Source: a virus
Taxonomy: Duplodnaviria > Caudoviricetes
Length of the DNA: 63,629 bases
IMG/VR virus record: IMGVR_UViG_3300019781_000017
Coordinates: 1 to 63,629 of that record
Reading direction: 5' to 3' (one strand)
Positions 1-63,373 of the stretch are shown here, in pieces. The position numbers and the translations under genes were made by a program. The stretch's first letter is position 1, and every line of letters starts with the position of its first letter. The notes beneath the pieces were generated by a model. It searched no databases. It saw only the letters and a list, made by a program, of their open reading frames with translations, and had not been told where the DNA came from.

Positions 1-8
1 AAGAAAGA

Positions 9-135
9 GCCACTTTTTATGCAAAATGCATGTAATGCTAATGGTGCTATACTCTGAAATAATATGTTAATGTGTTAATATCCCCTATAGGGTTTAGGGT
101 TTGCTTTCTGTCTGTTGTTGTGTGTTATGCAGAAC
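9..135. repeat. 127-bp terminal direct repeat, left copy (identical to 63503-63629)
   Basis: gccactttttatgcaaaa...gttatgcagaac is identical at both ends. Confidence 0.95.
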
Positions 136-242
136 TACTGAAGCGTCATACTATCGCCCCTACCATGGATTCTAGAATGGGATACATCGAAATAATTGGC
201 GCAGCAGCCGGGGGAGGCAAAAATATCGATGCGCGAATTCAG

Positions 243-271
243 TTGTGATGCAGTAATGCCCACGCTATAAG
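243..271 (+). promoter_or_regulatory. sigma70-type promoter upstream of the candidate ncRNA
   Basis: TTGTGA-N17-TATAAG; gctataaggggtgcaa (264-279) matches gctaaaaggggtgcaa (6339-6354) in another predicted promoter at 15/16 positions. Confidence 0.6.
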
Positions 272-277
272 GGGTGC

Positions 278-800
278 AATGCTTCGGCGTTACTTGATAG
301 GTGCTGGATTTGCTTCTGCAGGGGCGGTTCAGAGCACTGGGCGGCAGTTCCCAGCATAGTGTCAGGTTGCGTTGGAGACTACCCTGACGGTTGGGGACTA
401 GGCCAGATAATTAACCGTCCGAGAATGTAGAACTAATTCAACTGGTTGTCGGTCGTAAGCCTGGCAACTGCAACCGACGGTTTGAGGACGCAGCTTGCTG
501 ATGTTAGTAGAACCGTCGGGAGCGCCGCAAGGCGTAGAGTGAAGCCTGATCAGCAGAACTCTAGGTATGGGTCGCACTATACCTCTGTCCGCGTCCCAAG
601 GGCAGCAAGACCACAGTTGGCGGCCGCTGGCTGTGGTCATTGGGATACGAATGTGTCCTTTGCTCAACTATGGGCAGTTCGCTGGATTAAAATTCAGTGC
701 GCTGCCCACACTTTCGTTGATGCAAGCTCCATACGCACCGCCCTACCCAAAGTGACCCGTAAACGGTCGGGAGGGGTGGCAGCTAGGGGCCGAGTTCGAC
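278..800 (+). ncRNA. candidate large structured non-coding RNA of unknown class
   Basis: more than 12 consecutive hairpins with many G-U pairs on the + strand, a c(UUCG)g loop at 282-287 and a GCAA loop at 527-530; no credible ORF; upstream promoter. Confidence 0.55.
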
Positions 801-804
801 TGAT

Positions 805-1131
805 TTAAGGCGATTTGCGCGCCTGCGTTAACCATATCCGTTAGGGTTAGGAAGCATCCTTAACGATGCGTTAACCATTCATCGCGTGGCGACGTTAACC
901 ATATCGATTAGTCTTACCGCGGCGTTAACCATTCGGATCTCCGATGGGTGACAGGTGTTGCATCTATGCAACAGCATAGCACTGGCCGCAATTGATTACC
1001 AAACATCATTAACATCTATCGGAGGGCGTTAACCTTAACGAATATGGTTAACAAACAGTTCATGAATGTTAACCATGTCTGTTAGGGTTAATGAACATGG
1101 TTAATGAAAGTCGAACGGATGTTAACCTTAA
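805..1131. promoter_or_regulatory. array of CtrA-like binding sites
   Basis: 15 TTAA tetramers, 7 TTAACCAT half-sites and one perfect TTAA-N7-TTAA (860-874) in a GC-rich genome. Confidence 0.6.
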
Positions 1132-1337
1132 CGCAGGCCGATACTGTTGCCCATCGACCACATCCGGCTAATCTTCGATATAAGGCCGATACAGGGGCGA
1201 TAGCGCGCTGCGCGACCTTACTACGAAAAAGAAAGTTTTGCGATTTCGAGTGTTTCCGAACTGAACTGGTATGATTCTTGCTACGCGGGCGGGTGCGCGC
1301 GCTGCTAAAGCGCCTTCCATTTGATGTGCGAATGTTA

Positions 1338-1366
1338 TTGATTTGTTAGTCCTCGGCGACTATACT
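1338..1366 (+). promoter_or_regulatory. sigma70-type early promoter
   Basis: TTGATT-N17-TATACT upstream of an AAGGAG RBS. Confidence 0.7.
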
Positions 1367-1391
1367 GGTGGAAGCAACAAGGAGACGCACT

Positions 1392-1523
1392 ATGTATTCG
1401 GAAATGGCTTACTTCGAGGGAAACCACTGCCAGCACGTCGCTGCCCGTGAGGAGCGCCTCCGCTTGCAGCGCATCCGCGCACAAGCAATCAAGGCACTCG
1501 ACCGTCGCTCGGTGCGCCGCTAA
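1392..1523 (+). CDS. 43-aa hypothetical protein (MYSEMAYFEG...), not in ORF track
   Basis: AAGGAG RBS; TAATG coupling to the next ORF. Confidence 0.7.
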   Translation: MYSEMAYFEGNHCQHVAAREERLRLQRIRAQAIKALDRRSVRR

Positions 1524-1666
1524 TGGAACCGCGGACCATCGGGCAGCTGATTAGCGGGTTCGGCGCCAAGGTGCTGGTCGCAGGGGTTGCGCTTTGGGTC
1601 GCAATCGAAGCGGTTGGCTACATCTCAACCCTGTTCGCGCAGATTAATTCTGCATTCGGGCAATAA
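1523..1666 (+). CDS. 47-aa single-TM membrane peptide, not in ORF track
   Basis: MEPRTIGQLISGFGAKVLVAGVALWVAIEAVGYISTLFAQINSAFGQ; translationally coupled. Confidence 0.65.
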   Translation: MEPRTIGQLISGFGAKVLVAGVALWVAIEAVGYISTLFAQINSAFGQ

Positions 1667-1765
1667 ATCGCAATTTTGTTGTAGACTTGTTAATCCCTAT
1701 CCCGTAGAAGCAAACAATGGAAGCGGGGCACTTCAGCATCCGCCCATAAGCAAAGGAAGCATACC

Positions 1766-2332
1766 ATGATCCAGTTCACCAAAGCTCAGCTGACCGAAGC
1801 CCTCACCCTCGCATCGGTCGCCATACCTCGCAAGGCGAATGTCGCTACCCTGACCGCCCTGCACGATGCGCTCCCCCTGGAGCAGCAGCTCTGCCCGCAC
1901 TGCGGCATCCACCTGTCCAATGGGGTCTATTGCGTGGATGACGAGCAGCATGTGGACGGTGGCAGCACTGGTCGCAGCTACCGCGATGCCAAGGACCCCG
2001 ACTTCGCAGCCGGTGCCAACGTCTGCATGGGTTGCGGGGAACACTTCGGTGATCCGGTCACCTACGAGGATGCCAAGCCCGATGCACACACCGGCACTGG
2101 GCTCAAGATTGAAAAGGACCGCCCTGAGCAGAACGGAATCAAGCGTCCGTCCGCAGGGGGTAAGTGCCGCGCAATCTGGGACGCCCTGGACGAGTATCGC
2201 GCAGAGACCGGCGAGTTGCCGACCTCCAAGACGGTCAAGGAGCTGGCGGCCGACAGCGGGTGGAACCCGAACAATGCGTCGATCGAATACTACCAGTGGC
2301 GCAAGTTCAACGGTATCGCTAAGGGCGCCTAA
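1766..2332 (+). CDS. hypothetical protein: Zn ribbon plus C-terminal EQNGI.RP...WRKF.G domain
   Basis: CPHC...CMGC; AAAGGA RBS; C-terminus paralogous to 48979-49539. Confidence 0.85.
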   Translation: MIQFTKAQLTEALTLASVAIPRKANVATLTALHDALPLEQQLCPHCGIHLSNGVYCVDDEQHVDGGSTGRSYRDAKDPDFAAGANVCMGCGEHFGDPVTYEDAKPDAHTGTGLKIEKDRPEQNGIKRPSAGGKCRAIWDALDEYRAETGELPTSKTVKELAADSGWNPNNASIEYYQWRKFNGIAKGA

Positions 2333-2354
2333 GCCCTAGCCTACCCCCGATATA

Positions 2355-2388
2355 GCGCACCCCCTGCCTGTGTAGGGGGTGCGTTGTC
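2355..2388 (+). terminator. GC-rich hairpin, putative terminator
   Basis: gcgcaccccct...agggggtgcgt directly after the stop; weak U tract. Confidence 0.5.
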
Positions 2389-2675
2389 GTGAGTGGCACA
2401 TGGATGGCGATGTGTATCCACATCCAACTGTGCAGGCCCCACAGCACAGCACAGAGGGCGATGTCGATGCGATGTCGAACGACGAAGAGGTTGATAGGGG
2501 TGGGGGTAGGACGGGATTTCATCCGATCGCCGATCGCATCCAGCAATTTTTACCCGGCCCCCATATCCCGAATGCATCTACTTCTTCAACGTGTTTTGTG
2601 CATCCTACCATTTCACTTGTAACGCTGCACGGCCTGCCCTATACCATTAGCAGCATCTGCTTACAGGAGTGTTCC

Positions 2676-2924
2676 ATGCCCAAGCCAATAATGCGCTTTC
2701 AGTCGTTCACCAAGTCCGGTCTCAATTGGGTTGAGGGTCGTGCTACCCTGCGCAACCTATGCGCCGCCATCCGCAACACTGAAAGCGTCTATTCGGACAT
2801 AGGCCTGTCGCGCAACGGCTATCGCCAGCGCACCCTCACCATCGGTGTTGGCTTCATGGGTCCGCGCGGTCTCTACCGCTGCACTTGGGGTCTGTATCTT
2901 GTATTCGGGCGCAAGGTGCGCTAA
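2676..2924 (+). CDS. hypothetical protein (MPKPIMRF...)
   Basis: CAGGAG RBS; promoter TTGTAA-N17-TATACC at 2617-2645. Confidence 0.7.
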   Translation: MPKPIMRFQSFTKSGLNWVEGRATLRNLCAAIRNTESVYSDIGLSRNGYRQRTLTIGVGFMGPRGLYRCTWGLYLVFGRKVR

Positions 2925-2970
2925 GCTAATTCAGCCAGATATTGTGGTCAAACAGGAAAGGAGTTGCGCG

Positions 2971-3396
2971 ATGCTATTCGAGGACAAGCCCAGGAAGGTC
3001 CACTTATTCAGGGACCAGGCCGGACGTAAGCAACGGCGCGGGCTGGGCAAGCTGGTGGACAACACCCTATGCGCGTCGAACCACGGCGACAACGGACTGC
3101 TCAAGACGGAAGACCCTCGGAAGGTCACGTGCAAGCGGTGCCTGAAGCTCATGGAGGACAGCCCGGTCGGCCAGCTCGAGGTTATGCTCACTGAAACGAG
3201 CAAGCATCTCGGTGAAGCGGAGGACTTGCTGGACCTTTACCGCCGACGCACCGAGCGCCTGGAGCGCACGCTGGGCTTCGCGCTTGATTCACTGGAGGAG
3301 CGCAGGCACGTTGTCGTTCACGTTCCGACGATGCTGAGTGTCGGCGAGCTGATTGAAGCTGTGCTGGCGGACAAGGTCAAGGAGCCCGAGCAATGA
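2971..3396 (+). CDS. hypothetical protein with VTCKRC Zn motif and coiled coil
   Basis: AAGGAG RBS; ATGA overlap with the next gene. Confidence 0.75.
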   Translation: MLFEDKPRKVHLFRDQAGRKQRRGLGKLVDNTLCASNHGDNGLLKTEDPRKVTCKRCLKLMEDSPVGQLEVMLTETSKHLGEAEDLLDLYRRRTERLERTLGFALDSLEERRHVVVHVPTMLSVGELIEAVLADKVKEPEQ

Positions 3397-3686
3397 GCCA
3401 CCCATTCCAGACAGCGTCGGACGTTCGGAAGCAACCCGAGCTCACCGAGCAGAACTACCTCGATTTGAGCCTGATCCAGCCGCTCACGGAGGCGCAAGCT
3501 GACGAATACTTCAACAAGCCTACGCTCACTGAGCAGTATCACGCCGAGCTGGCGAAGCTGCCCGCTGAAGCGCAGGACGTCTTCAGGCGCTACGACGCTA
3601 TGAAGAAGGTCCAGATTGACAACGCTTATGAGTCCGGGCGCCGCGAAGCGCACTACCGGCCTGGATACGGGGAGATGGGCGGATGA
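3393..3686 (+). CDS. hypothetical protein
   Basis: coupled ORF in the early operon. Confidence 0.7.
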   Translation: MSHPFQTASDVRKQPELTEQNYLDLSLIQPLTEAQADEYFNKPTLTEQYHAELAKLPAEAQDVFRRYDAMKKVQIDNAYESGRREAHYRPGYGEMGG

Positions 3687-3898
3687 CCTTGCAGATCTTT
3701 GAACAGCTTCACCCGGTCCCGCACGCGCAGAACCGCTTCCGCATCCTCGAAACCTACGAGTCCTGCGACGGAACGCGGACACGGGTGAGCGATAAGTCGT
3801 TTCCTACGTTCGACCGGGCGATGGATTTCGTGGATCCGAACCGGCCCAAGCCCCTGCACCGCCTGGAAGAGGATGATTCCGATGTGCGGGAAGGCTGA
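3683..3898 (+). CDS. hypothetical protein
   Basis: ATGA overlap; GGAG RBS. Confidence 0.65.
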   Translation: MTLQIFEQLHPVPHAQNRFRILETYESCDGTRTRVSDKSFPTFDRAMDFVDPNRPKPLHRLEEDDSDVREG

Positions 3899-4103
3899 AA
3901 AGCAGATACGCGCTGACTTGGACGCGACGGGGTTGCCCTATGCCATTGAACGCGGCACCCGTCACCTGAAAATCAAGCTGTGCGGATATTTGGTCGGGAT
4001 AATTCCGATGAAGGGTAAGGACAACGTCGGGGACAAGCGGACTTACTTCAACGTCCGCTCGCAGATACGGCGCAAAGCGAAGGAGTTGGCCGGTGAAAGC
4101 TGA
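3873..4103 (+). CDS. small basic protein, possibly HicA-like fold
   Basis: helix, then IERGTRHLKIKL (G.xH motif), then a C-terminal helix NVRSQIRR. Confidence 0.5.
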   Translation: MIPMCGKAEKQIRADLDATGLPYAIERGTRHLKIKLCGYLVGIIPMKGKDNVGDKRTYFNVRSQIRRKAKELAGES

Positions 4104-4314
4104 GGTAATCATTCCCGAGGGTCGGCAAGGCTGGTGGGGCGGTCCGGATACGCGACCCCGCTGCGCGAAATGCGACAAGGTCGTGTTCTTTGAGGAAGCA
4201 AAGGCGATCGCAGCCACCGAGAAGGCGGCGGCACGGGGTCAGCCTATGGTCCATTATCGGGGCAGGTGCGGGCACTTGCACGTCGCACGGCAAAGGGTTC
4301 GGAAGAATGGCTGA
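4093..4314 (+). CDS. hypothetical Zn-binding protein
   Basis: CAKC...YRGRCGHLH. Confidence 0.65.
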   Translation: MKAEVIIPEGRQGWWGGPDTRPRCAKCDKVVFFEEAKAIAATEKAAARGQPMVHYRGRCGHLHVARQRVRKNG

Positions 4315-4645
4315 AATCCCACACGATTCCCGACGCCAGATGGCTGCATTCCGGCGACCGTTCGACCTGCCTGTGCGATACGACGATTGCACGTGGCAGG
4401 AGCGGCGCGAGGTTCGCGAGGAATACATCATCGTCCAGAAGGGTCTGTGCTGGCACTGCAAAGAGTCGCTCCTGCACGACACGCTCGACGAATACAAGGC
4501 GCGCTTCCCGCTGGATCCGCGATTTTGGGGACCTGAGTTCCTGAAACATCCCGTTCACCTCCACCATGACCACAATACGGGCTTGACCGTCGGCGCTACA
4601 CATGCTTATTGCAATGCAGTTCTAGCGCAATACTACGGAGAATAA
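4307..4645 (+). CDS. endonuclease VII-like (His-Me finger) protein
   Basis: QKGLCWHC...LHHDHNTGLTVGATHAYCN. Confidence 0.7.
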   Translation: MAEIPHDSRRQMAAFRRPFDLPVRYDDCTWQERREVREEYIIVQKGLCWHCKESLLHDTLDEYKARFPLDPRFWGPEFLKHPVHLHHDHNTGLTVGATHAYCNAVLAQYYGE

Positions 4646-4646
4646 G

Positions 4647-5231
4647 ATGGACTCGCTAATATCCCTCGATGCACCTGACGACGTAAAGCGCGCGAAGGTT
4701 GACGAGCTCCACAAGAAGCTCACGCTCATGGGACGTGGCTGTGGCACCTGCCAAGCGTGCTGCACCATACTTCGGGTCGACATGGAGCCCGTTGCACCCG
4801 TCCACAAGCCCGAGCGGACTCGCTGTGGTCACCAGTGCAAGGCGGGGTGCAGCATCTACGACGCGAAGCCCGAATCTTGCTCGGTGTTCATGTGCCTGTG
4901 GCTTGCCATGGAGCTGTTTGACAACCGGATGCTCAAAGAGTGGCGCCCTGATAGGGTGGGCGCTGTGGTGGACGTCAACGAGGTCGGCACAATCACCGTT
5001 CACCTGAAGCACGAGAACGCTTGGCAGCGTGAGGGTGACCTCCGCGACATGCTGCTCTGGCTTGCGCAGGGGAAGTCCATGTTCGACCAGAATGTGTTCG
5101 TTGTCCTGGACCGTCCCAGCGGCAATCACCTTCTGTTCACCGCTATCGGAACGACGCAGGAGCTTGTCGCTTGCGGTGTCGGTCCCGATGGGTTGAAACA
5201 GTTCCGCACGAAGTATGAGGGAGAAGCGTAA
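4647..5231 (+). CDS. YkgJ-like CxxCxxCC cysteine-cluster protein
   Basis: CGTCQACC...C...CSIYDAKPESCSVFMCLW. Confidence 0.7.
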   Translation: MDSLISLDAPDDVKRAKVDELHKKLTLMGRGCGTCQACCTILRVDMEPVAPVHKPERTRCGHQCKAGCSIYDAKPESCSVFMCLWLAMELFDNRMLKEWRPDRVGAVVDVNEVGTITVHLKHENAWQREGDLRDMLLWLAQGKSMFDQNVFVVLDRPSGNHLLFTAIGTTQELVACGVGPDGLKQFRTKYEGEA

Positions 5232-5431
5232 TGGATATCATGGCACGAGCAGCGTTCCTGACGACGCAAGCGGCCTGCTGCCAGGCAAAGCTGATGGCTA
5301 TGTCCGAACAGAACGTGGCTGACCGCGCTGCCGGGCGTCCTGTCTCCTACCAGCCCGATGACTTCGAGTCTGCACCCGACCAGTTCGGTCTCGGGCACAA
5401 CGCTGCAATCGAATACCTCCGTGACTACTGA
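5231..5431 (+). CDS. hypothetical protein
   Basis: TAATG coupling. Confidence 0.65.
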   Translation: MDIMARAAFLTTQAACCQAKLMAMSEQNVADRAAGRPVSYQPDDFESAPDQFGLGHNAAIEYLRDY

Positions 5432-5870
5432 ATTCCGCCCGCACCTATCCCCTAGCGAAATGCTTGAGATGGGGGTGTTCGGTGGCAGCTACTTTCACGA
5501 CGCTACAGACGGCGACCTGCTCGGGCTGGGGGCCGCTACAGCGCTGGCGCACGCTAACCGCGACCCGTATGACAAGCGCAAGAACTACTATGAGGCGCGC
5601 GCTGGGGAAAGCTATGCGCAGTGGATGCAAAACGGATGGATCTTCCCTGAAGACCCGCTCGGATGGTTCCACTGGTATTGCCGCTGGCACGCGGGTCGGA
5701 GGCACGAGCGCGATGAGCACCAGATGCGCCGCTGGATCAACTATAAGCGCTGGGCGCGGGTTGCGCGCACGCAAGCGTTCACGAAGGGTGACGCATCGCT
5801 TGTCGTGAAGCAAGGGTTGCTCCAGTGGGCTTATAGTCCAATGCAGGTTATTCACGGGGAGGATATGTGA
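5421..5870 (+). CDS. uncharacterised protein with GVFGGxY / DPxGWFxWYCR motifs
   Basis: motif-rich ORF; GTG start inferred. Confidence 0.7.
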   Translation: MTTEFRPHLSPSEMLEMGVFGGSYFHDATDGDLLGLGAATALAHANRDPYDKRKNYYEARAGESYAQWMQNGWIFPEDPLGWFHWYCRWHAGRRHERDEHQMRRWINYKRWARVARTQAFTKGDASLVVKQGLLQWAYSPMQVIHGEDM

Positions 5871-6304
5871 CACCTGACGAAATCAAGAGCTTTGGAAAGC
5901 TATTGAGGCTTCTTGCCAGCGACCAGTCAGGTGAGCGCGCTGTAGCTGCTCTGAAGGCGACCAAGTTCCTAAAGGACCGGAATCTCGACTGGCATGACGT
6001 CGTTGAGATGCTCGCCAAACCTCAGCCAGCTCCGCAACCTCCACCAGGCCCACGACCTTCGTATCAATATCATGCTAGGCCTAATCCTTATGCCAGGCAG
6101 TGGGCTCCGCCACCTCCACCCCCTTCGGGCAATAGCATCGACCACATGGACGCCGCGTGCGCTTGCCTCACACTGTTCAACTATTGGACTGCGAAGGAAG
6201 AGGACTTTCTTCTTGACATGCAAGATGTCGCATGGCCGACACAGAAGCAACTCAAGTGGCTTAAATCCCTCTATGAGCGCTATTTGCGTGAAATGGCGAA
6301 CTAG
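5867..6304 (+). CDS. hypothetical protein with Pro-rich linker
   Basis: GGAGG RBS; GTGA overlap. Confidence 0.7.
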   Translation: MTPDEIKSFGKLLRLLASDQSGERAVAALKATKFLKDRNLDWHDVVEMLAKPQPAPQPPPGPRPSYQYHARPNPYARQWAPPPPPPSGNSIDHMDAACACLTLFNYWTAKEEDFLLDMQDVAWPTQKQLKWLKSLYERYLREMAN

Positions 6305-6376
6305 ATGCACGAATTCGCTTGCGGTAGTTCACCCATCCGCTAAAAGGGGTGCAACAGCAACGCACAGGAGCTTAAC

Positions 6377-7519
6377 GTGGAAGACAATCAGACCATAGAC
6401 CCCAAGGTAATCGCTCGCCTGAAGAAGATGCTGCATCTCGCGCAGCACGGTTCGGCGAACGAGGGTGAAGCGAACAACGCCGCTGAGATCGCACAGAAGA
6501 TCATGATGGAGAACAACATCTCCATGGCGATGGTCGACGCGCACAGCGACGCACCCGAGGGCAGCGCACGCAAGAAGATCAAGGACGAAGGGAACGCCAA
6601 GTATGCGTTCCAGCGGGACCTGATGGCAGCGTGCTGCGATGTCAACTATGTGTTCCAGGAAGTGCGCTATGACTACTCGGGTCGCTACCCGAAGGCGTTG
6701 GGCTACACCCTGATCGGGCGCGAAGCCAATGTGGTCGGAGCGAAGCTCCTGTTCGAATACCTGTTCCAGACCATCGACCGCCTTGCGGTGGACTACGTCG
6801 GCAACCCTACGCTGGCAAGCGGCATTGCGGGGAACAGCTTCAAGGAAGGTTGCTCCGCTCGCATTGGTGAGCGCCTGCGTGACCGCCACCGCACGCAACT
6901 CGCTGAGCAGGCCCGCGCAGCACGTGAAGCCAACGTGGCAGCCCGTCACCCGGCGAGCAGCGGAACGGCGCTCACTGTGGTCATGGAAGACGTCGCGCAG
7001 ACCGAGCGTGACCACAACGAAGATCTGCGTCTCGGCAAGCCCGAGGGATACACCGCCAACAAGCGCCTGATGGCAACCCGGCGGTCGGAAATCGAAGCGG
7101 CACTCAATGACGCGTTCGTTCCGCTGCGCAAGACGGTCGGTGACCGCGAAGTGCTCCGGCAGGCGGCCCGCGCGGCGTTCGAAGCGCTGTGCATCAACCG
7201 CTCCTGGAAAGTGGACGACGAGCTGGAGTCCATCTTCGACCGCGAAGTGCAGCGCCAGATCTCCTCGCACATGGACATCTATAACGAAGCGGTCCGCTAC
7301 GCCAAGATGACCCCGTTGCAGCGCCAGCGCGAAGCGGAAAAGGAAGCACGCGAAAGCGCTCGCTACTGGGCACGATATGACCGCTACTATTCGCGCCAGT
7401 CCGGCCGCGCTGCACCTTCCGCAGTGGACCGCGCTGCCTACGAAGCGGGTCAGGCTACCGGCAGCACTGTGGGGCTCGACGCCCAGGTCGGTGCTGAAAC
7501 CCGGAAGTCAATCAAGTGA
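6377..7519 (+). CDS. DUF2786-type protein
   Basis: N-terminal KVIARLKKMLHLA...NEGEA..A...AQKIM; own promoter at 6319-6346 and CAGGAG RBS. Confidence 0.75.
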   Translation: MEDNQTIDPKVIARLKKMLHLAQHGSANEGEANNAAEIAQKIMMENNISMAMVDAHSDAPEGSARKKIKDEGNAKYAFQRDLMAACCDVNYVFQEVRYDYSGRYPKALGYTLIGREANVVGAKLLFEYLFQTIDRLAVDYVGNPTLASGIAGNSFKEGCSARIGERLRDRHRTQLAEQARAAREANVAARHPASSGTALTVVMEDVAQTERDHNEDLRLGKPEGYTANKRLMATRRSEIEAALNDAFVPLRKTVGDREVLRQAARAAFEALCINRSWKVDDELESIFDREVQRQISSHMDIYNEAVRYAKMTPLQRQREAEKEARESARYWARYDRYYSRQSGRAAPSAVDRAAYEAGQATGSTVGLDAQVGAETRKSIK

Positions 7520-7710
7520 GCGTGCTTCGCTGGATCTGGAGGGACTGGTCCCGCGCGCCCATCTCCGGCACGATGTGCCTCATGGCGCAGGGGATGTCAG
7601 GTGTGCAGTTCTTGAACGGTAACATCGACCGGGGCCTGCTGTGGCTCATCCTTGCGTCGATTTGGGTTGCGACCCGTGGGCCCATGGAGGCGGAAGATGA
7701 AGTTGAGTGA
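7516..7710 (+). CDS. small membrane protein
   Basis: hydrophobic segments; coupled. Confidence 0.55.
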   Translation: MSVLRWIWRDWSRAPISGTMCLMAQGMSGVQFLNGNIDRGLLWLILASIWVATRGPMEAEDEVE

Positions 7711-7936
7711 CCGCCAGCGCGACCACCTCTGGAACACCTTGCGCGGTTGCGGGTGCTCCGAGGAGTGGTTGATGCATCATGGGGAATACCTCTGCGAGAA
7801 CATCGCTGCACTGATTCAGCGCCCAGCTCCCGAGGTGCGTGAGGTTGTGCGCCACGTTCACCATAGCAGCCCCGCACCATCTGATTTCGGTTTCGGTATG
7901 GCGGTAGGCATCGCCGTTGGAGGTATGTTCCCATGA
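7697..7936 (+). CDS. hypothetical protein
   Basis: GGAGG RBS; C-terminal hydrophobic tail. Confidence 0.6.
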   Translation: MKLSDRQRDHLWNTLRGCGCSEEWLMHHGEYLCENIAALIQRPAPEVREVVRHVHHSSPAPSDFGFGMAVGIAVGGMFP

Positions 7937-8292
7937 AGTATATCATGCTCGAGACGGAAGAGGGGATGAAGCTCCCCATCATCTTCCCCGACGTCCTGAC
8001 CCATTGCTTCGTCGCGGGTGCCATGCAGCTTGTCATGGACACGCTCGACCCGAAGAAGGACTTGCGCCCCCGCCAGCTCGATGACATGCTGAAGCGGGGC
8101 AGCGCTCCGCCCGTTAGCGCGGGGTTCGTTAACATCGTCGGAGACGTCACTGTCTACGGCGAATCCGAGTCACTGGGCGGAGTGAAGAGCGTTCCCGCGG
8201 ACGCTGCCCGGATCCTGATGGGTGACGCCATCCAGTTCATGCCTGATAGCATGTGCGAACTACTGATGGAGAAGCTACGTGACGGAACATAA
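7933..8292 (+). CDS. hypothetical phage protein
   Basis: MKYIM...PIIFP...VSAGFV...GESESLG; GGAGG RBS. Confidence 0.75.
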   Translation: MKYIMLETEEGMKLPIIFPDVLTHCFVAGAMQLVMDTLDPKKDLRPRQLDDMLKRGSAPPVSAGFVNIVGDVTVYGESESLGGVKSVPADAARILMGDAIQFMPDSMCELLMEKLRDGT

Positions 8293-8521
8293 GAACGACG
8301 AGCGCAACTGGATTGTTGCAGTGCTCACGAACGGCTGGATGAAAGTCGCATTCGCTGAGCAGGCGGAGAACATCGCGCGCCAGAAGGCTGAAGCGATGTC
8401 GCTCGACCCCGTGGGCACGAAGTGCGATCTGGAAGAGCACGACCTGTCGCTGGTCGAAGCGGTGTTCGTCTACGAGCGCAAGGGCACGGTCCGCGCCGAG
8501 AAGATTGCGAAGTGGAGCTGA
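8279..8521 (+). CDS. hypothetical protein
   Basis: coupled ORF. Confidence 0.6.
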   Translation: MTEHKNDERNWIVAVLTNGWMKVAFAEQAENIARQKAEAMSLDPVGTKCDLEEHDLSLVEAVFVYERKGTVRAEKIAKWS

Positions 8522-8522
8522 C

Positions 8523-8831
8523 ATGCAAGCGTGCAATTTCGCCGGTGCCCACGCGGTAGGCAAACCGAAGGACTGGATCCCTGAGCTCGATGGTGAGTGT
8601 GGCACCATCTTCTGCATGGACCAGATGAACGATCAGCTGGGATATAACTTCAAGTATTCCATCTACAAGCCCACCGAGGCTGACCTCGCTGTGCTGAACG
8701 CTGGTGGCGCGCTGCGCCTGGGCATCATGTGTGACGGCCACCCGGTCTTCAACATGGTCTGCCTGGACAAGACCATCTGCGACGAAATCAACCTCACTCC
8801 CATGTGGGACCTTGGAGAACCTGTGAAATGA
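8523..8831 (+). CDS. hypothetical protein
   Basis: GKPKDW...CGTI...KPTEADLAVLNAGG...HP; GGAG RBS. Confidence 0.7.
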   Translation: MQACNFAGAHAVGKPKDWIPELDGECGTIFCMDQMNDQLGYNFKYSIYKPTEADLAVLNAGGALRLGIMCDGHPVFNMVCLDKTICDEINLTPMWDLGEPVK

Positions 8832-9286
8832 GCAAGACCCCGATATTCGACGAGTTCTTCCGCCAGCGTTCCGACGTCGTGGAAGCGAGCCAGACCCCGC
8901 GCACTGTCACCTTCAGTTACGAGGGGTGGAACAAGGCGCAGCTCGAGACGTTGGCGGGCGATAACATCAAATACACCCCGCCGACGTATTGCGGGCTCCC
9001 GCACATGGTCGACCCGAACCAGACCGCGCCCATTGTGGTCACCCACGAATATCCTCACGAGGTGCAAGCGCGCCTCAAGCAACCGTTCCGCAGGCAGAAC
9101 GCCATCACCGTCAAGATTGACGGGATCATGTCCGGCGCACCTGTGGTCGAGATCCTTGCTGCCAACCTCACCGCTGCGCAGCTCTGCGACATTGCGCGTG
9201 CGTGGCTGGACGCCGACTGCCAGAAGTGGGGCAAGTTCGAAACCGATCTCGACAAGGTCATCACCGAGCATGGACGCTTCGACTAA
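8828..9286 (+). CDS. hypothetical protein
   Basis: ATGA overlap; GGAG RBS. Confidence 0.7.
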   Translation: MSKTPIFDEFFRQRSDVVEASQTPRTVTFSYEGWNKAQLETLAGDNIKYTPPTYCGLPHMVDPNQTAPIVVTHEYPHEVQARLKQPFRRQNAITVKIDGIMSGAPVVEILAANLTAAQLCDIARAWLDADCQKWGKFETDLDKVITEHGRFD

Positions 9287-9365
9287 CGAAAACGCTTGCG
9301 ATGCGGGGCCACCAGCCGCTAAGCAAGTGTTGCGCTGCAAAGCGCCCAACAAGGGGCGCCATCGT

Positions 9366-9464
9366 TTGGAGTTGTCGATAGCCTATCCGTTCCGGTGCGA
9401 GGGGTGTGGATATCATTTCCGAACGATGGCAAACCTCCGCGACCATCAGAGGGGCTTCCAATGA
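9366..9464 (+). CDS. 32-aa zinc-finger-like microprotein (start uncertain)
   Basis: PFRCEGCGYHFRTMANLRDHQR; downstream of promoter 9296-9325; ATGA-coupled to the next gene. Confidence 0.45.
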   Translation: MELSIAYPFRCEGCGYHFRTMANLRDHQRGFQ

Positions 9465-9676
9465 CGATTAGAGGTTATCCGCACAAGCCAGTCCTGCATG
9501 ACTGCCATCACTGCAACGGAACTGGGCGGATCAAGACACCCTTCCCGCCTTGGTCGCACGGTTGCACTTCATGCAATGAAACGGGCATCGCTGGCAATGC
9601 CGCTGTCCCCGTGTTCATCGTTCTGGTCGCTTTCCTTCTCGGGGGAATCGGCCTTTTGTTTTGGCTGTTCGGATAG
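9461..9676 (+). CDS. DnaJ-type CxxCxGxG zinc finger with C-terminal TM helix
   Basis: CHHCNGTG...CTSCNETG plus hydrophobic tail. Confidence 0.65.
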   Translation: MTIRGYPHKPVLHDCHHCNGTGRIKTPFPPWSHGCTSCNETGIAGNAAVPVFIVLVAFLLGGIGLLFWLFG

Positions 9677-9684
9677 GAGATATT

Positions 9685-10131
9685 ATGGAACATGACAACG
9701 GCCTGAGCTTCAAGACGCTCAGGGAAGCGAACAAGCGGCGCCTGCCGCAGTTCAAGGACGCTCAAGGGCGCACAGCGCACGCGCTGCCCGACGGGTCGGA
9801 CTGGTCGCCCGCGGAATGGGGGCAGGCTGTGCTCGGGGAGTTGGGCGAACTGGCCAACCTCGAGAAGAAGATTAAGCGGGGTGACTTCGACATGGACAAC
9901 CCCGAGGTCGCTCTTGAAGTGCAGACCGAGGTTGCGCGCGAGTTCGCTGACATCGTCACCTACCTCGACATCTACGCAATGCAGCGCGGTGTCGACCTGG
10001 GCGAAGCGACCCGCATGAAGTTCAACGAAGTGTCCCGCCGCGTGAAGGCATCTGTCTTCATTGCGAAGCATGACACGCTCCTCGTGATCGATCCCGGTCA
10101 GATGGAGCTTGACTTCGAGCGTCCCCTGTGA
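9685..10131 (+). CDS. MazG-like nucleotide pyrophosphohydrolase
   Basis: GELGELAN..KK...REFADIV. Confidence 0.75.
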   Translation: MEHDNGLSFKTLREANKRRLPQFKDAQGRTAHALPDGSDWSPAEWGQAVLGELGELANLEKKIKRGDFDMDNPEVALEVQTEVAREFADIVTYLDIYAMQRGVDLGEATRMKFNEVSRRVKASVFIAKHDTLLVIDPGQMELDFERPL

Positions 10132-10310
10132 GGGCGTCCATTACAATCGAGACCCGCCGCTTGCCCTCGGGCAAGCTGGAGGTGCTGCTCGAGCGGTCGA
10201 CGGGATTCGGACGTGACAGCAAGCTCCACCGCGAGCTGTTCGAACTGCCCGACAACGAAACGACGTCTCTCCTGGAGACGCACTTGCGGAGGGTGACCAC
10301 AGGTGGCTGA
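10128..10310 (+). CDS. hypothetical protein
   Basis: coupled ORF. Confidence 0.5.
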   Translation: MRASITIETRRLPSGKLEVLLERSTGFGRDSKLHRELFELPDNETTSLLETHLRRVTTGG

Positions 10311-10686
10311 CGATCCCATCAACCCGAAGCACTATGCGGGGACCGAGTGCGCGCAGATCGGTGAGCGTCTGACCGGCAATAGCTATCAGGTGCTCAAGTA
10401 TAACTGGCGCTTGGGCAAGAAGGACGCTGCCACCATTGAGGTTGGCAAGTCAATCTGGTATCTCGACCGCGAGATCGAACTTGCCTACGGCGGGTGGCGT
10501 CCCAGCAACGGTCTTATCCTGCCGCCGGACAACTGGTTCTATGAGCTCTACAAGGATCAGAGCGACTATGTCCAGGCCTGCGCCATCAACCTTATCAACT
10601 GGAACCGGCACGCGGACAGGGATTGCTTGCATGTCCTGCGCGTCGAGCTGACGACCATGTTGACCACACTCCAGGAGAATAACTAA
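10303..10686 (+). CDS. DUF3310-like protein
   Basis: DPINPKHY...EC...KYNWRLGKKD...KSIWYLDR. Confidence 0.75.
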   Translation: MADDPINPKHYAGTECAQIGERLTGNSYQVLKYNWRLGKKDAATIEVGKSIWYLDREIELAYGGWRPSNGLILPPDNWFYELYKDQSDYVQACAINLINWNRHADRDCLHVLRVELTTMLTTLQENN

Positions 10687-11198
10687 TGAGCTTGCGCGCA
10701 GCGGTCGAGAAGGCCAAGGGACAGTTCCTCTTCTACGCGAAGCAACACCGCGACAAGTATGGGCCGGGGATGCCCCCGATGCTGCCTGCGGACGAAGCTA
10801 AGACCCGCGAGAAGGCGCTGGTCAACGAAGAGCTGGCTGCCGAGATGCAAGCCGCGCTTGACGACGAGCCGTTCGACGTGCTGGCCCTGGAGAAGGTGCA
10901 GGACTACCGCTTCGGCACGCTCACCAAGGGGACGCACTACAGCTTCGCACGGGGGCTCACCATCAGCCCGACGCACCTGCCTGCCGCGCTGGACGCTATG
11001 CTGCGCGACGGGTTCAAGCTGGTCTGCATGTTCGGGGAAGCGGTCAGCGACAAGATGGGGCTCATCTTTGAGCATGTGGGCCCGGACCCGCGCGTGCAAG
11101 GGTTGCTCGAAGCCAACACGGCACTTGTCCTGAAGAACCGGGAACTGAAGGCAGCTTACGACGAGCTGAAGTTCCGCATGGACGGTCTGGAGAAGTGA
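10686..11198 (+). CDS. hypothetical protein
   Basis: AGGAG RBS; TAATG coupling. Confidence 0.7.
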   Translation: MSLRAAVEKAKGQFLFYAKQHRDKYGPGMPPMLPADEAKTREKALVNEELAAEMQAALDDEPFDVLALEKVQDYRFGTLTKGTHYSFARGLTISPTHLPAALDAMLRDGFKLVCMFGEAVSDKMGLIFEHVGPDPRVQGLLEANTALVLKNRELKAAYDELKFRMDGLEK

Positions 11199-11584
11199 GT
11201 AACGAGGTCATCCTGACCTGCGGCCACTGCGAAGGGAAGAACCCGCGCCCCTTGCCTTATCCAATGAACGAACCGGATAAGTGCCAGGAGTGCGGTGTCC
11301 CTTTCCGCACGCATCTGGACGTCCTGCTAATGGAGGCGAAGTTCGTCACCCGGCAGATCAGACAGAGCAAGTGGGGCAGCTTTATCGAAGCGGTCGCGAA
11401 CACGGCCATTGGATACGTCATTGCGCTGGTCTGTATGCGCGTCATCATGTGGGCCTACGACTTCCCGATGGGCACGCGCGAGACGAGTATTGTGGTCATG
11501 TGGATGACCGTTGTTTCGGTGTTGCGCGGTTACGTAATCCGCCGTATGTGGAACGCACAGTTTTGGAGGCGCAAGCGTGGTTGA
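11195..11584 (+). CDS. Zn ribbon plus two-TM phage membrane protein
   Basis: CGHC...CQEC then QSKWGSFIEAVANTAIG...SVLRGYVIRR. Confidence 0.7.
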   Translation: MSNEVILTCGHCEGKNPRPLPYPMNEPDKCQECGVPFRTHLDVLLMEAKFVTRQIRQSKWGSFIEAVANTAIGYVIALVCMRVIMWAYDFPMGTRETSIVVMWMTVVSVLRGYVIRRMWNAQFWRRKRG

Positions 11585-11816
11585 GGATTACGAAACCTCG
11601 ATGCGCCGACAGTATCGCCAGTCACAGGGGTTCGCCCATGTGCATAAGGATGAACCAGAACCGACGAACCGGCATATGCGCAGGCGTCTGAAAGCAAAGG
11701 AGCGAGCGAGTGGGAATCGACGTCAGGCAGAAGGGTGCGGAGGGGGAGCGGCAGGTCATCAAGATGCTCACCCCGATCATCCAGCAGGTGATGCGGGACA
11801 TGGAGTTCCCGGCTGA
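11577..11816 (+). CDS. hypothetical protein (uncertain, overlaps next gene)
   Basis: GGAGG RBS; fills the gap. Confidence 0.35.
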   Translation: MVEDYETSMRRQYRQSQGFAHVHKDEPEPTNRHMRRRLKAKERASGNRRQAEGCGGGAAGHQDAHPDHPAGDAGHGVPG

Positions 11817-12183
11817 CAAGGTGGAAGCGGCGCTCAAGATGGTGCAGCGCAATCAGAACCAAAGCGCTGTCGGCGGGAACGACCTGTCCAACACCTTCGG
11901 GCTATCTATCGAAGTGAAGCGGCAGGAGCAGCTTGCCATCAACACATGGTGGGCACAGTGCGAGAACGCTGCGGCTCGCAACAACGAGCTCCCGGTCCTT
12001 ATCTTCAAGCAGAACAATAAGCCCTGGCGGTTCATCACGCTGGGCTTCTTGCACGTCCCCGCGGAGCGCGGCGCCTGGAGCAGCTTGCGCGCACGGGTCG
12101 AATTCAACGAGGAGACTTTCAAGAAGTGGTTCGCGGAATGGGTCCGGGGGCAACTGCTGAATGGCTGGGAGGCACGGATCTAA
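11710..12183 (+). CDS. PD-(D/E)xK nuclease, Holliday-junction-resolvase-like
   Basis: RQKGAEGERQV...GNDL...IEVKRQE...WW.Q...PVLIFKQN. Confidence 0.75.
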   Translation: MGIDVRQKGAEGERQVIKMLTPIIQQVMRDMEFPADKVEAALKMVQRNQNQSAVGGNDLSNTFGLSIEVKRQEQLAINTWWAQCENAAARNNELPVLIFKQNNKPWRFITLGFLHVPAERGAWSSLRARVEFNEETFKKWFAEWVRGQLLNGWEARI

Positions 12184-47396: not shown

Positions 47397-48157
47397 TAAC
47401 GGAACTCGTCGTAGTTGTCGGTCGAAGGCAGGTCCATCAACCCTTCACGCCATGCGCGCACGACAAGCGGGTCAGGCAACCCTGCCTGCGCGAACCCATC
47501 GGCCCGCAGGACGTTGGCATGGTTCATGTCGGTGGGCGGATACTGTCCGTCATAGCTGGTATGCGTGAACGCGAGCGCGTCCCAGCATCCCGGAAGCGTC
47601 GTGGCGAGCTCACAGGTCTGAGCCTTGGTGAGCTCCATCAGCGGGGTGGCGATGCGGATCGGTTGCGTTCCCCTGTGGTCATGCCCGAGCGCGGTGTTGA
47701 TATACTTGGCGGTCGCGTCGATAAACACCTGCCGGCAGTCATCATAATTGGCGTTGTCCATCGCGCAGACGCCAGTGACAATGTAGTCGATGCCCAGCGC
47801 TTCAGCACGGTTAGCAGCAAGCGTCAGGAACAGTGCGTTGCGCATGGGAACGAACGTCGTCTCCCGCCGGTCGCCGATCACCGCGTCCATCTGCTCAGCA
47901 TCGGTATAGCGTTCCAGTTCGTTACCGCTGGTGAGCGGGGAGCTGGATACAAGGATGTCACCGAGGGTAACGACCTCATGGCGATCACCGCAACCCGCCA
48001 GCTGTGCGACCAGCATTGCAGACTGGATTTCCAGGACGTGCCGCTGTCCGTAGTTGAACGTGATGCAATGCACCTCGTCGAAGTGTTGCAGCGCCCAGAA
48101 CAGGCAGGTTGTCGAATCCTGCCCGCCGGACAGGATAACAAGGGCTTTCTTCATCAT
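47396..48157 (-). CDS. queC: 7-cyano-7-deazaguanine synthase
   Basis: ALVILSGGQDSTT, FNYGQRH, TFVPMRN, YDDCR, TPLMELTK. Confidence 0.92.
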   Translation of the reverse strand: MMKKALVILSGGQDSTTCLFWALQHFDEVHCITFNYGQRHVLEIQSAMLVAQLAGCGDRHEVVTLGDILVSSSPLTSGNELERYTDAEQMDAVIGDRRETTFVPMRNALFLTLAANRAEALGIDYIVTGVCAMDNANYDDCRQVFIDATAKYINTALGHDHRGTQPIRIATPLMELTKAQTCELATTLPGCWDALAFTHTSYDGQYPPTDMNHANVLRADGFAQAGLPDPLVVRAWREGLMDLPSTDNYDEFR

Positions 48158-62299: not shown

Positions 62300-62529
62300 G
62301 CTGTTGCACGCTGCGCACGGTTGGCGGCCCAATCAGCTAGGTAGGGCTGAAGCGGCGCTCGCTCCCACAGCAGGATCTGCGGTTGCCCATTCGGGCGGCG
62401 GAGCACAATGGCATCGGGCAAGCGCCCAGTCTTAAGCGCCAGCAGAACAGTTGTTCTGTGGATGCCCAGTTGCTGACAGACTTCCGTGCTGCTGATGTAT
62501 TTATTGTCAAACTCAAGCTGTGCAGACAC
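62296..62529 (-). CDS. AlpA/excisionase-like HTH DNA-binding protein
   Basis: ISSTEVCQQLGIHRTTV...GRLP. Confidence 0.7.
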   Translation of the reverse strand: MSAQLEFDNKYISSTEVCQQLGIHRTTVLLALKTGRLPDAIVLRRPNGQPQILLWERAPLQPYLADWAANRAQRATA

Positions 62530-62599: not shown

Positions 62600-63298
62600 C
62601 TACTTGTTGATGCGGTAATTATCCACTGCATCCCTAGCGGATCGGGCCTGGAGCTCAGCTTGAGCCACAGCTTCCTCCGCGCGCTGCACACGCTCAGCAC
62701 GGTCCAGCTTGGCCTGGGCAATAGCAGCGTCCATGTCGGATTTGGCGCGCTGGATCTCGCCCTTGAGCCACTTGCGTCCCTCGACTGCATTGTGGTCAGC
62801 AGCTTTAGCAGCCTTGAGCAGCGCGTCCAGGTCAGGGTCATCGGATCCAGGGCTGTTGCGCAAGCGGTGCCTCGCGACACGCTCACGATTGAGCCTAGCC
62901 TCACGCTCTTCCCTTGTCTCGTTAGGATTGTCCGGGTTCCGCTTGTTGGCTAGCATCCACTCCTTAGCGCGGTGGACATAGCGGTCCAGCTCATGCCCAA
63001 AGGAACGCGGATGTGAACCCTCCAGCGTGCGCAGGGCGTGGAGCATGTCATACAGGGTTGGGCAGCGGTGCGACGCTGGGGCATCCTTCGGCCACCAGCT
63101 AACCACATTAGAGAACGCCTGAAGGTCACCGGGTTCAACCCATGTGGACGGGTTAGCGATTTGTTCAGCAGGCACACCGCTGGCAAGCAGATAGTCACGC
63201 TGGTCCTGAACGCACTGGATAAAGTGGACCCATTGCACGGTCTCACTATCCGCTGTCCGCAGCCAAGCAATGGATGGAGGGATAGCAAGGAATGACAT
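62600..63298 (-). CDS. hypothetical protein with C-terminal coiled coil
   Basis: own promoter upstream; TAAGGT RBS. Confidence 0.7.
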   Translation of the reverse strand: MSFLAIPPSIAWLRTADSETVQWVHFIQCVQDQRDYLLASGVPAEQIANPSTWVEPGDLQAFSNVVSWWPKDAPASHRCPTLYDMLHALRTLEGSHPRSFGHELDRYVHRAKEWMLANKRNPDNPNETREEREARLNRERVARHRLRNSPGSDDPDLDALLKAAKAADHNAVEGRKWLKGEIQRAKSDMDAAIAQAKLDRAERVQRAEEAVAQAELQARSARDAVDNYRINK

Positions 63299-63344
63299 TG
63301 TGCTGCACCTTAGATAAGGATGAGTGGATATATGCGGATGCTGC

Positions 63345-63373
63345 ATTATAGCGCGTGGGCGTGCGTATGCAAG
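63345..63373 (-). promoter_or_regulatory. sigma70-type promoter
   Basis: CTTGCA...GCTATAAT on the - strand. Confidence 0.65.

Follow-up and report, generated by a model that had tools for sequence, protein, structure and literature searches.

A predicted structured RNA family with a conserved pseudoknot core near the replication genes of phages infecting Proteobacteria

Results and discussion

The locus and its predicted RNA

The window analyzed in this study is the complete viral contig IMGVR_UViG_3300019781_000017 (Duplodnaviria; Caudoviricetes; 63,629 bases), the first base of which is arbitrary. Close to its start, at approximately positions 272–720 of the plus strand, lies what is, judged from sequence comparison, a genuine non-coding RNA gene of an uncatalogued phage RNA family (Table 1). 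We consider it very probable that this structured RNA family is real. The RNA is predicted to head the rightward gene block within a divergent intergenic region, and when the contig is read as circularly permuted, the primase/helicase gene at its far end is placed divergently upstream of the RNA. The initial annotation had proposed a structured RNA at positions 278–800 as the first transcript of the genome. The structured RNA itself was recovered in our analysis, whereas the end at position 800 was not: conservation among the closest homologues (group A, see below) breaks down beyond a terminator-like hairpin and its U/C tail. We therefore place the RNA at ~272–720, with the 3' end at ~709–722. 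Its rank as the first transcript is an artefact of the arbitrary contig start; the copy in a related phage genome is internal, at 48 kb and between divergent gene blocks.

This related genome, Sphingomonas phage vB_StuS_MMDA13, is the only DNA relative of the window in the GenBank phage set (75.6% identity over window positions 15–902), and nothing is annotated in its matching stretch. In the account of this region given in PMC7472734, the stretch falls within a 1186-bp non-coding region that extends from gp53 (leftward) to gp54 (rightward), and gp53 adjoins the primase/helicase gene gp51. The same account describes a lower G+C content (50%) of the divergent promoter region, a rightward block of 61 consecutive open reading frames (ORFs) over 38 kb, and seven terminators predicted genome-wide.

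Table 1 Features of the window and small ORFs annotated across the RNA in relatives. Coordinates refer to the window unless another record is named.
Feature	Coordinates	Strand	Remarks
Sigma-70-type promoter (predicted)	243–271	+	−35 TTGTGA 243–248, 17-nt spacer, −10 TATAAG 266–271
Structured non-coding RNA (predicted)	272–722 (end ~720)	+	~445 nt; 5' end placed from the promoter, 3' end from the hairpin and CUUU tail
5' domain closed by long-range helix P1	282–377; P1 282–299/360–377	+	Encloses helices 301–335, 311–326 and 337–354
Conserved core, predicted H-type pseudoknot	382–419	+	S1 382–384/393–395; S2 386–392/413–419; loop 396–412
Ten-helix run, first part	427–442, 444–469, 474–519 (enclosing 488–504), 522–535	+	Group A consensus
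Ten-helix run, second part	536–562, 563–584, 585–605, 606–642, 643–658	+	Group A consensus
Terminator-like 3' hairpin	Hairpin 671–708; tail 709–722	+	Hairpin followed by CACUUUCGUUGAUG
Spacer outside the conserved RNA	723–812	+	Includes hairpin 738–779 and G-rich box GGGAGGGG (770–777)
GTTAACC(AT) box array	827–1127	.	DNA-level regulator sites, outside the RNA
Second promoter-like site	1338–1366	+	TTGATT-17-TATACT; promoter scan
First small ORF of the rightward block	ATG 1392; promoter and ORF 1338–1523	+	ORF list
DUF7220 protein	11195–11584	+	129 amino acids; CxxC...CxxC and two hydrophobic segments in alignment
QueC homologue	47483–48148	−	E = 1e-49
Primase/helicase, syntenic marker	59777–62332	−	851 amino acids; DUF3987 and NrS-1 polymerase HBD domain
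248-amino-acid ORF	62600–63346	−	Leftward neighbour at the far contig end
“Hypothetical protein” across the RNA, phage TIVP-H6	L083 277–707		GenBank Nipunavirus record
“Hypothetical protein” across the RNA, phage Sew_P3	L084 330–694		GenBank Nipunavirus record
“Hypothetical protein” across the RNA, phage Quinobequin-P09	L085 119–661		GenBank Nipunavirus record
“Hypothetical protein” across the RNA, phage JG054	L082 119–322		GenBank Nipunavirus record

Homologues, subgroups and distribution

Using the primase/helicase as an anchor, we collected 43 related loci from IMG/VR. BLASTN among these loci found matches in L006 (81.9% identity over 873 nt) and in L005 and L011 (74.6% over 433 nt), which are identical to each other over the RNA region. 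A covariance model of window positions 374–522 (R1) gave weaker matches in ten more loci, all of them located upstream of the primase in opposite orientation. A second model restricted to the core (R2) matched 16 of the 43 primase loci at constant position and orientation, 1.3–3.5 kb upstream of the primase/helicase. The full 8 kb upstream were available for 28 loci, 14 of which matched R2 and 14 of which did not. With filters switched off, R2 scored at most 12.2 bits on five of these 14 non-matching loci, and the best scores on five whole records without the RNA were 16.1 and 12.6 bits. The RNA in non-matching relatives is treated here as absent or beyond recognition. Since half of the loci with a full upstream region had no match, the RNA appears to be widespread in this phage clade and not universal.

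When viral contigs were screened with a loose core pattern, 20 stretches were obtained, of which nine were already known, three were new (L052, L058 and L063), and eight were dropped as chance matches because the stem was missing. An exact 18-mer scan of viral contigs yielded only an AT-rich chance match (L003). The core pattern scans also detected 12 metagenome stretches and one 57.5-kb contig (L079, 57,509 nt) that had been binned into a metagenome-assembled genome. This contig, labelled Halothiobacillaceae, is identical to L028 around the core, equals in length the IMG/VR contig from which L028 comes, and looks like a phage genome that was binned with a bacterium.

BLASTN of one of the RNAs found in this way against the GenBank phages retrieved 19 records of Pseudomonas, Xanthomonas and Variovorax phages. 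They include the Pseudomonas phages NP1, PaMx25, JG054, JG012, PAJD-1, TIVP-H6, Quinobequin-P09, BL5, PIP, Sew_P3 and pPA-3099-2aT.3, Xanthomonas phage DoCa3 and Variovorax phage VPv62, and most of the GenBank relatives examined are classed as Queuovirinae, genus Nipunavirus. A group C RNA (from L010) had no match in the same phage set.

The homologues fall into five subgroups. Group A consists of the window, MMDA13, L005 and L006; group B comprises 20 distinct Nipunavirus-like sequences of 234–418 nt; group C contains L007 and L010; L058 stands alone; and group E contains L034, L041 and L018. Two further loci (L022 and L042) are more distant than these subgroups. Across the family the RNA is 230–450 nt long.

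The genomic context differs between the subgroups. In the window, ~600 nt of regulatory DNA and a second promoter-like site separate the RNA from the first ORF, which suggests that the first ORFs of the window phage are independent of the promoter of the RNA. In Nipunavirus, the RNA is embedded in the early operon, where two small ORFs precede it. No repeats or boxes follow the RNA in groups B and E, where the ribosome-binding site of the next gene is found 15–30 nt after the terminal hairpin, and the gene located 3' of the RNA differs between group B relatives.

Conserved pseudoknot core

All groups share a segment of ~50 nt (window 376–425) directly 3' of the 3' strand of the long-range helix P1, with the layout GAC(U/A)NCC(C/G)U, stem, (G)GGG, loop ending in G(A/G)CCA(G/C)AUAAU, the other stem strand, and CG..AA. 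Compensatory changes in both helices support the view that this core is an H-type pseudoknot common to all groups. Across the family it is composed of a 3-bp helix S1, a helix S2 of 5–7 bp and a 17-nt loop, which reads GACUAGGCCAGAUAAUU in the window phage.

The core was tested on an ungapped alignment of 13 sequences from four subgroups, in which five measures were compared with 500 shuffles and with controls in which the pairing partners were slid. In this alignment, 94.6% of the cells were paired, compared to 72.4% in the shuffles and 35–52% in the slid controls. Nine of the ten pairs change on both sides, and none of the 500 shuffles reached the observed value for any of the five measures. 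Helix S1 is paired in all sequences (100%). Two different pairs of this helix have changed from C-G to G-C in independent lineages, one in L016 and the other in L007 and L010; L018, inspected by eye, has U-A at the pair that flips in L007 and L010. Helix S2 varies by lineage (GACGGU/ACCGUC, CGCGGU/ACCGCG, UCCGG/CCGGA, GUAGCAG/CUGCUAC, GCCAGU/AUUGGU and UCACGU/ACGUGA). Its sequence thus differs across the five subgroups, and the pseudoknot loop barely changes.

Architecture of the whole RNA

RNAalifold predicted 155 base pairs for the four distinct group A sequences, 46 of them with compensatory changes. When the consensus was restricted to the RNA and recomputed, it contained 140 pairs with 94.4% of the cells paired. 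Changes on both sides were present in 45 of these 140 pairs, compared to 21.2 ± 3.1 in shuffles (0 of 500 reached 45) and 4–12 with slid partners. For group B, six helices were drawn by hand on a MAFFT alignment of the 20 sequences, giving 40 pairs with 96.9% of the cells paired; 18 of the 40 pairs had changed on both sides (shuffles, 5.7 ± 1.4; slid partners, 1–4). A joint MAFFT alignment of groups A and C was too noisy for such counts and was left out. Hence, the covariation among homologues that had been suggested as a check exceeds the controls in three separate alignments, namely those of the core, group A and group B.

Eleven of the 14 stems listed in the initial annotation recur in the group A consensus. 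The three others lack this support: the 5' hairpin at 278–291 competes with P1, gtcagg/cctgac (361–388) is not conserved, and ccgccct/ggggtgg (738–779) falls in an insertion of ~42 nt downstream of the RNA that is present in the window and L006 only and absent from MMDA13 and L005.

The four helices of the 5' domain, P1 and the three that it encloses (301–335, 311–326 and 337–354), contain 6, 1, 1 and 3 pairs changed on both sides, respectively. An equivalent P1 abuts the core in the group B alignment and, by eye, in groups C and E. The run of ten helices that follows the core (427–658; helices 8–17 of the group A consensus) has 87.5–100% of its cells paired, and helices 9–16 each include one to five pairs changed on both sides. 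Within this run, the loop at 527–530 is GCAA in the window, GUAA in L006, and UUCG in L005 and MMDA13. The family is built in a modular manner: P1 with the 5' domain, the pseudoknot, the 3' domain and the terminal hairpin are always present, and the middle domain is swapped between relatives and missing in L063, whose 234-nt RNA represents a minimal form.

The 3' domain of group B contains two hairpins with covarying stems. Their loops, UGUGGG and CCCACA(C), share a complementary stretch of 6 nt, and a self-association of the RNA through these loops is possible. In three group A sequences (the window, L005 and MMDA13), the loop of helix 536–562 (positions 547–552) has the palindromic sequence UGAUCA, which L006 lacks. 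Being self-complementary, this loop could mediate dimerisation.

Promoter and 3' end

The promoter upstream of the RNA (Table 1), which had been noticed before as TTGTGA-N17-TATAAG, proved to be a conserved feature, and its position implies that transcription should begin near 272–278. Its hexamers are kept in MMDA13, L006 and L005, with a variable spacer. Among 23 representatives of all subgroups, 20 carry the motif TTGNNN / 16–18 nt / TA(T/C)A(A/G/C)(G/T) at a similar distance of 90–134 nt before the core, again with variable spacers, and the remaining three (L005, L007 and L010) have near-variant promoters as judged by eye. A general promoter scan did not list the site in the window, because its −10 hexamer ends in G.

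In groups A and C, the terminal hairpin of the RNA precedes a C(C)UUU(U)CG tail; all four group A sequences as well as L007 have the hairpin with C(C)UUU(U). The stem sequences of this hairpin differ between the group A phages, with three pairs changed on both sides and 76.7% of the cells paired in the MAFFT alignment. As the U-tract is short, termination at 671–722 can only be inferred. A strict scan for a 3' hairpin with a U-rich tail was passed by 13 of the 23 representatives, and a hairpin with a weaker tail was seen in others. The 3' end of most group B members reads GCGCGGCCUGGG-ACUGGUG-CCUGGGCCGCG followed by UUUCCUCUU, and it was annotated as “terminator” in the PaMx25 record by its authors. 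In this terminal hairpin, the loop (A/U)CUGGUG is conserved and the stem covaries (7 of 12 pairs). Two of the 20 group B members (L016 and L063) lack the U-tract.

Strand specificity and coding potential

The plus strand of window positions 270–810 folds with −236.4 kcal/mol, compared to −198.6 ± 7.4 kcal/mol for 100 dinucleotide shuffles, none of which was as good (z = −5.08). For the minus strand, z was −1.60, and 8 of 100 shuffles were as good. The proposed folding-energy check against shuffles of both strands was thus passed by the plus strand only, in agreement with the earlier remark that the many G-U pairs favor this strand. For positions 271–722, z was −3.74 in sense and −1.40 in antisense direction (40 shuffles). 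The RNAs of groups A and C gave sense values of −2.9 to −4.3 and antisense values of −0.9 to −2.0 (40 shuffles each). In group B, the fold was not significantly better than that of shuffles (z = −0.8 to −2.3), and the case for this group is consequently made by covariation alone.

The statement that the locus contains no credible ORF held up in the comparison of homologues. Substitutions between the window and the three other group A sequences were distributed evenly over the codon phases (39/35/30, 47/44/41 and 55/57/55), and many indels of 1–2 nt that break the frame occur among these sequences. A frame of 120 amino acids in the window (446–808) is reduced to 60 codons in L006, at a sequence identity of 82%. 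No ORF is conserved among the group A homologues, whose longest frames differ; what they conserve is base pairing and not an ORF. In the GenBank records of relatives, the stretch is either unannotated (NP1 and PIP; “terminator” only in PaMx25) or covered by mutually inconsistent small ORFs. Those annotated across the RNA as “hypothetical proteins” in TIVP-H6, Sew_P3, Quinobequin-P09 and JG054 (Table 1) are probably spurious, and our finding thus corrects the annotation of these records.

These data also bear on the view that there is no functional RNA, and that the locus is regulatory DNA (divergent promoters, operator hairpins) or a decaying gene whose apparent structure stems from base composition and shared ancestry. 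A divergent promoter region of lower G+C content (50% in MMDA13, as described in PMC7472734), the weak z-scores of group B and shuffle controls that are not corrected for phylogeny would fit this explanation. However, the changes on both sides keep the pairing far above the slid controls, which preserve relatedness, the advantage in folding is confined to one strand and relies on G-U pairs, the pseudoknot stem differs across five subgroups around an invariant loop, and no reading frame is kept. We thus regard this explanation as highly improbable.

Relation to known RNA families

GOLLD and ROOL, two classes of large phage RNAs, are among the Rfam families. A search of Rfam 15 (4227 covariance models) at gathering thresholds gave no match to these or any other families in the whole window, and none in eight homologous loci (117,952 bases). 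Under permissive settings, the best hits in the window were RT-8 (20.4 bits compared to a cut-off of 87; E = 0.7) and the snoRNA ceN109 (E = 2.9), and the best in L015 were Ocean-V and mir-1249 (E = 7–9). As the initial annotation had stated, there is no sign of a tRNA or tmRNA, genes for which ARAGORN did not find anywhere in the window.

Several more specific assignments were considered and rejected. A riboswitch, including the preQ1 and cobalamin classes, is contradicted by the lack of a match to any aptamer model and by downstream genes that differ between close relatives. The group B loop CAGGAGACC resembles the “B12 box” of cobalamin riboswitches; it has no Rfam match, and the motif is absent from groups A and C. 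Likewise, AGGAG in a group B loop was discarded as a Shine-Dalgarno site, as groups A and C do not share the motif.

A literature search retrieved no description of an RNA in MMDA13 or in the Nipunavirus phages (NP1 and PaMx25), and the passages of PMC7472734 and PMC9437464 that describe the MMDA13 region mention repeats and promoters and no RNA. The closest resource is a set of 8,495 candidate structured RNAs, named DNAVirus_N, that were predicted from IMG/VR 3.0 (PMC10690425). It is similar to our study in its data source and in the kind of evidence, covariation in phage intergenic regions. However, according to the main text of that study its candidates are 29–151 nt long (mean 67), compared to 230–450 nt here, and this main text contains no occurrence of the words Pseudomonas, Sphingomonas or primase. 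Fragments of the RNA may be among these candidates as anonymous entries. The suggestion of an undescribed class of structured phage RNA is thus supported by the absence of an Rfam 15 match, the plus-strand fold and the conserved base pairing, and in the literature found, the class with its full-length architecture, pseudoknot core, promoter, end and host range is undescribed. This novelty concerns the RNA class and not a proven new mechanism.

Among the known RNAs of phages and prophages, GOLLD, ROOL and similar large RNAs, which have no known function, form RNA-only multimers as determined by cryo-electron microscopy (bioRxiv 10.1101/2024.12.08.627333). The RNA described here shares with them a phage-borne, non-coding, multi-helix and covariation-rich build, a transcription unit of its own and the lack of a known function. 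Its complementary or palindromic loops (UGUGGG/CCCACA in group B; UGAUCA in three of the four group A sequences) could also mediate self-association. It differs in being much smaller (230–450 nt), with one small pseudoknot and a swappable periphery, and in being carried by lytic siphoviruses that infect Proteobacteria.

The packaging RNA of podoviruses, phi29 pRNA, is likewise an early, promoter-proximal and structured phage RNA, and the complementary pair of hairpin loops in group B adds to this resemblance. In contrast to pRNA, the RNA studied here has no Rfam match, belongs to siphoviruses of the terminase type and not to phi29-like podoviruses, and is located beside replication and early genes instead of packaging genes.

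Possible role of the RNA

Provided that the RNA is real, we favor, with a probability of about 0.5, a discrete and self-contained early RNA that acts in trans and presents its pseudoknot loop to a partner. Host RNA polymerase would produce it early in infection as a discrete, stable and self-contained transcript. The pseudoknot and its invariant loop would then form the recognition surface for a conserved partner, which might be a replication or early protein of the phage or a host factor that alpha-, beta- and gamma-proteobacteria share, and the swappable peripheral helices would serve as a scaffold or for self-association. We favor this reading because the RNA has its own strong promoter even inside an operon together with a terminator-like end, because it forms a separate unit ahead of another promoter in the window phage, and because a conserved core with a variable periphery is typical of stable RNAs.

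Several observations speak against this interpretation or weaken its foundation. The alignments contain few truly independent lineages, the tested structures were derived from the same sequences on which they were tested, and the shuffle control ignores relatedness, which is preserved only in the slid controls. To this the weak folding of group B has to be added. No sequencing run recorded as RNA contains the stretch; four wastewater runs that were compared with window positions 1–12000 consist of contigs, probably of DNA, that cover many parts of it. A partner was not identified, as only one protein family (DUF7220, see below) tracks the RNA among 11 genomes. Finally, the terminal hairpin of groups B and E lies ~15–30 nt before the next ribosome-binding site with no obvious promoter in between, and transcription of the downstream genes in these groups must therefore pass through the element. 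This read-through fits a role in cis as well or better.

Such a cis role forms the main rival explanation, a serious one that we consider less likely and that is missing from the roles envisaged in the initial annotation (scaffold, protein sponge, anti-defence decoy or ribozyme). In this reading, the long rightward operon would begin with an element that works as a processive antiterminator or attenuator, similar to put of phage HK022 or the Bacillus EAR element, and the folded RNA would stay with the polymerase that made it or switch its own terminal hairpin. HK022 put, which consists of two simple stem-loops, and EAR (~120 nt) are cis-acting processive antiterminator RNAs. The RNA resembles them in its promoter-proximal location near the start of a long, terminator-containing phage operon and upstream of these terminators, in its independence of the identity of the downstream gene, and in the lack of an evident dedicated protein. 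Its orientation is always that of the rightward block, at whose start it is located; in MMDA13 this block amounts to 61 ORFs and 38 kb (genome account in PMC7472734). Its place inside the early operon of Nipunavirus, and the hairpin and U-tract so close to the next ribosome-binding site in groups B and E, fit this explanation too. The varying downstream gene, which excludes a gene-specific riboswitch, agrees with a general elongation signal. Moreover, the conserved loop of the covarying terminal hairpin and the missing U-tracts of L016 and L063 indicate that this hairpin is more than a plain terminator.

On the other hand, the RNA and the first ORF are set ~600 nt apart in groups A and C by non-coding DNA with a separate promoter-like site, a dedicated strong promoter would be unnecessary for an element embedded in an operon, and the RNA has a terminator-like end of its own. 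With 230–450 nt it is three to six times as large as put or EAR, and with a pseudoknot core and at least ten helices it departs from their small architecture. The pairing of the 5' strand of P1 with a repeated GGCCUGGGACU in the terminator arm, which a switch could use, is lost where P1 varies. Indeed, a terminator/antiterminator switch in group B through the second copy of GGCCUGGGACU was rejected, since the five sequences with A-U at 19–73 would form an A-C mismatch.

The location beside the replication genes raises a further explanation, in which the RNA or a read-through transcript of it primes or opens an adjacent origin together with the neighbouring prim-pol/helicase, as for ColE1 RNA II or in phages T4 and T7. 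Synteny with the primase/helicase is constant in all 16 matches of the core model, and G-rich boxes, TCAAAAAATAGTAGGTGGG repeats (L007 and L010), a CTCGACCGATTT box and the GTTAACC array lie beyond the RNA in groups A and C. ColE1 RNA II is a pre-primer RNA of ~500 nt; like it, the RNA of these two groups is folded throughout and transcribed toward repeat-rich non-coding DNA beside replication genes. However, no such repeats follow the RNA in groups B and E, where it leads straight into genes. The GTTAACCAT boxes were published as candidate CtrA-binding sites and not as an origin (PMC9437464, in its treatment of these repeats), and priming via an R-loop needs no conserved pseudoknot with an invariant loop. 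We consider an origin transcript improbable.

A more far-reaching proposal, that the RNA is a new phage RNA machine that directly reprograms a universal host machine, or that it assembles through its complementary loops into a multimer made of RNA alone, as a small counterpart of ROOL or GOLLD, appears somewhat doubtful to us. Its most plausible version would be a protein-independent processive antiterminator that binds RNA polymerase, is unrelated to put and is several times larger. If this were true, one polymerase could read the rightward operon of ~38 kb, and lytic siphoviruses of alpha-, beta- and gamma-proteobacteria would have in common an RNA machine that is made from the first moments of infection.

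The RNA always occupies the switch point from the replication genes to the long rightward operon, which points to a part in the early infection program. RNA-based early control is poorly known outside the lambdoid phages, the list of structured phage RNAs above 200 nt is short, and most of its members have no assigned function. The cultured carriers include Pseudomonas phages NP1, PaMx25 and JG054, with PAO1/PA14 as hosts, and Sphingomonas phage MMDA13. Because these are easily handled phage-host pairs, deletion, compensatory mutation and cis/trans complementation are feasible, and the invariant pseudoknot core and the natural 234-nt RNA of L063 are clear targets for structural and binding studies.

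Neighbouring DNA elements and genes

Between the RNA and the first ORF, eight GTTAACC(AT) boxes occur within 300 nt, some of them as inverted pairs (1028–1052 and 1068–1103). They account for eight of the ten GTTAACC matches in the genome, for which 2.71 ± 1.77 would be expected genome-wide. The same 12-bp repeat is described in MMDA13 (genome account in PMC7472734), where it is predicted to bind CtrA, a cell-cycle regulator of the host (PMC9437464, in its treatment of this repeat). The promoter of the RNA thus lies upstream of what is probably a CtrA-controlled gate.

In group C, a direct repeat, TCAAAAAATAGTAGGTGGG, is found twice between the 3' hairpin of the RNA and the GTTAACC boxes (at approximately 4430–4500 in L007 and 4330–4400 in L010, both on the minus strand). 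It is followed by the box CTCGACCGATTT, which is also conserved 3' of the RNA in group A, where the window contains it as TTCGACTGATTT at ~795–806. These repeats and this box may represent origin or regulator sites.

The combination of an NrS-1 polymerase HBD domain and DUF3987 in the primase/helicase of the window suggests a replicase of the prim-pol type rather than a DnaG-type primase. The 248-amino-acid ORF next to it has no relatives among the viral contigs and no Pfam or PHROG family, and the proteins neighbouring the RNA belong to no informative families.

In a phylogenetic profile, the ORFs of the window were compared with five genomes that contain the RNA and five that do not. DUF7220 was the only gene that tracked the RNA across the resulting 11 genomes (five of six with the RNA compared to none of five without). 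The encoded product looks like a small membrane protein, and its co-occurrence with the RNA may be a coincidence of lineage.

A link to 7-deazaguanine DNA modification was considered and rejected: QueC is encoded in all six genomes with the RNA and in four of the five without, and because QueC is thus present with or without the RNA, these genes have no specific connection to it. Searches of all 11 genomes with PF01702 (TGT) had no match and hence revealed no DpdA-like gene. The presence of a QueC homologue in the window is in line with the cluster for 7-deazaguanine DNA modification reported for MMDA13.

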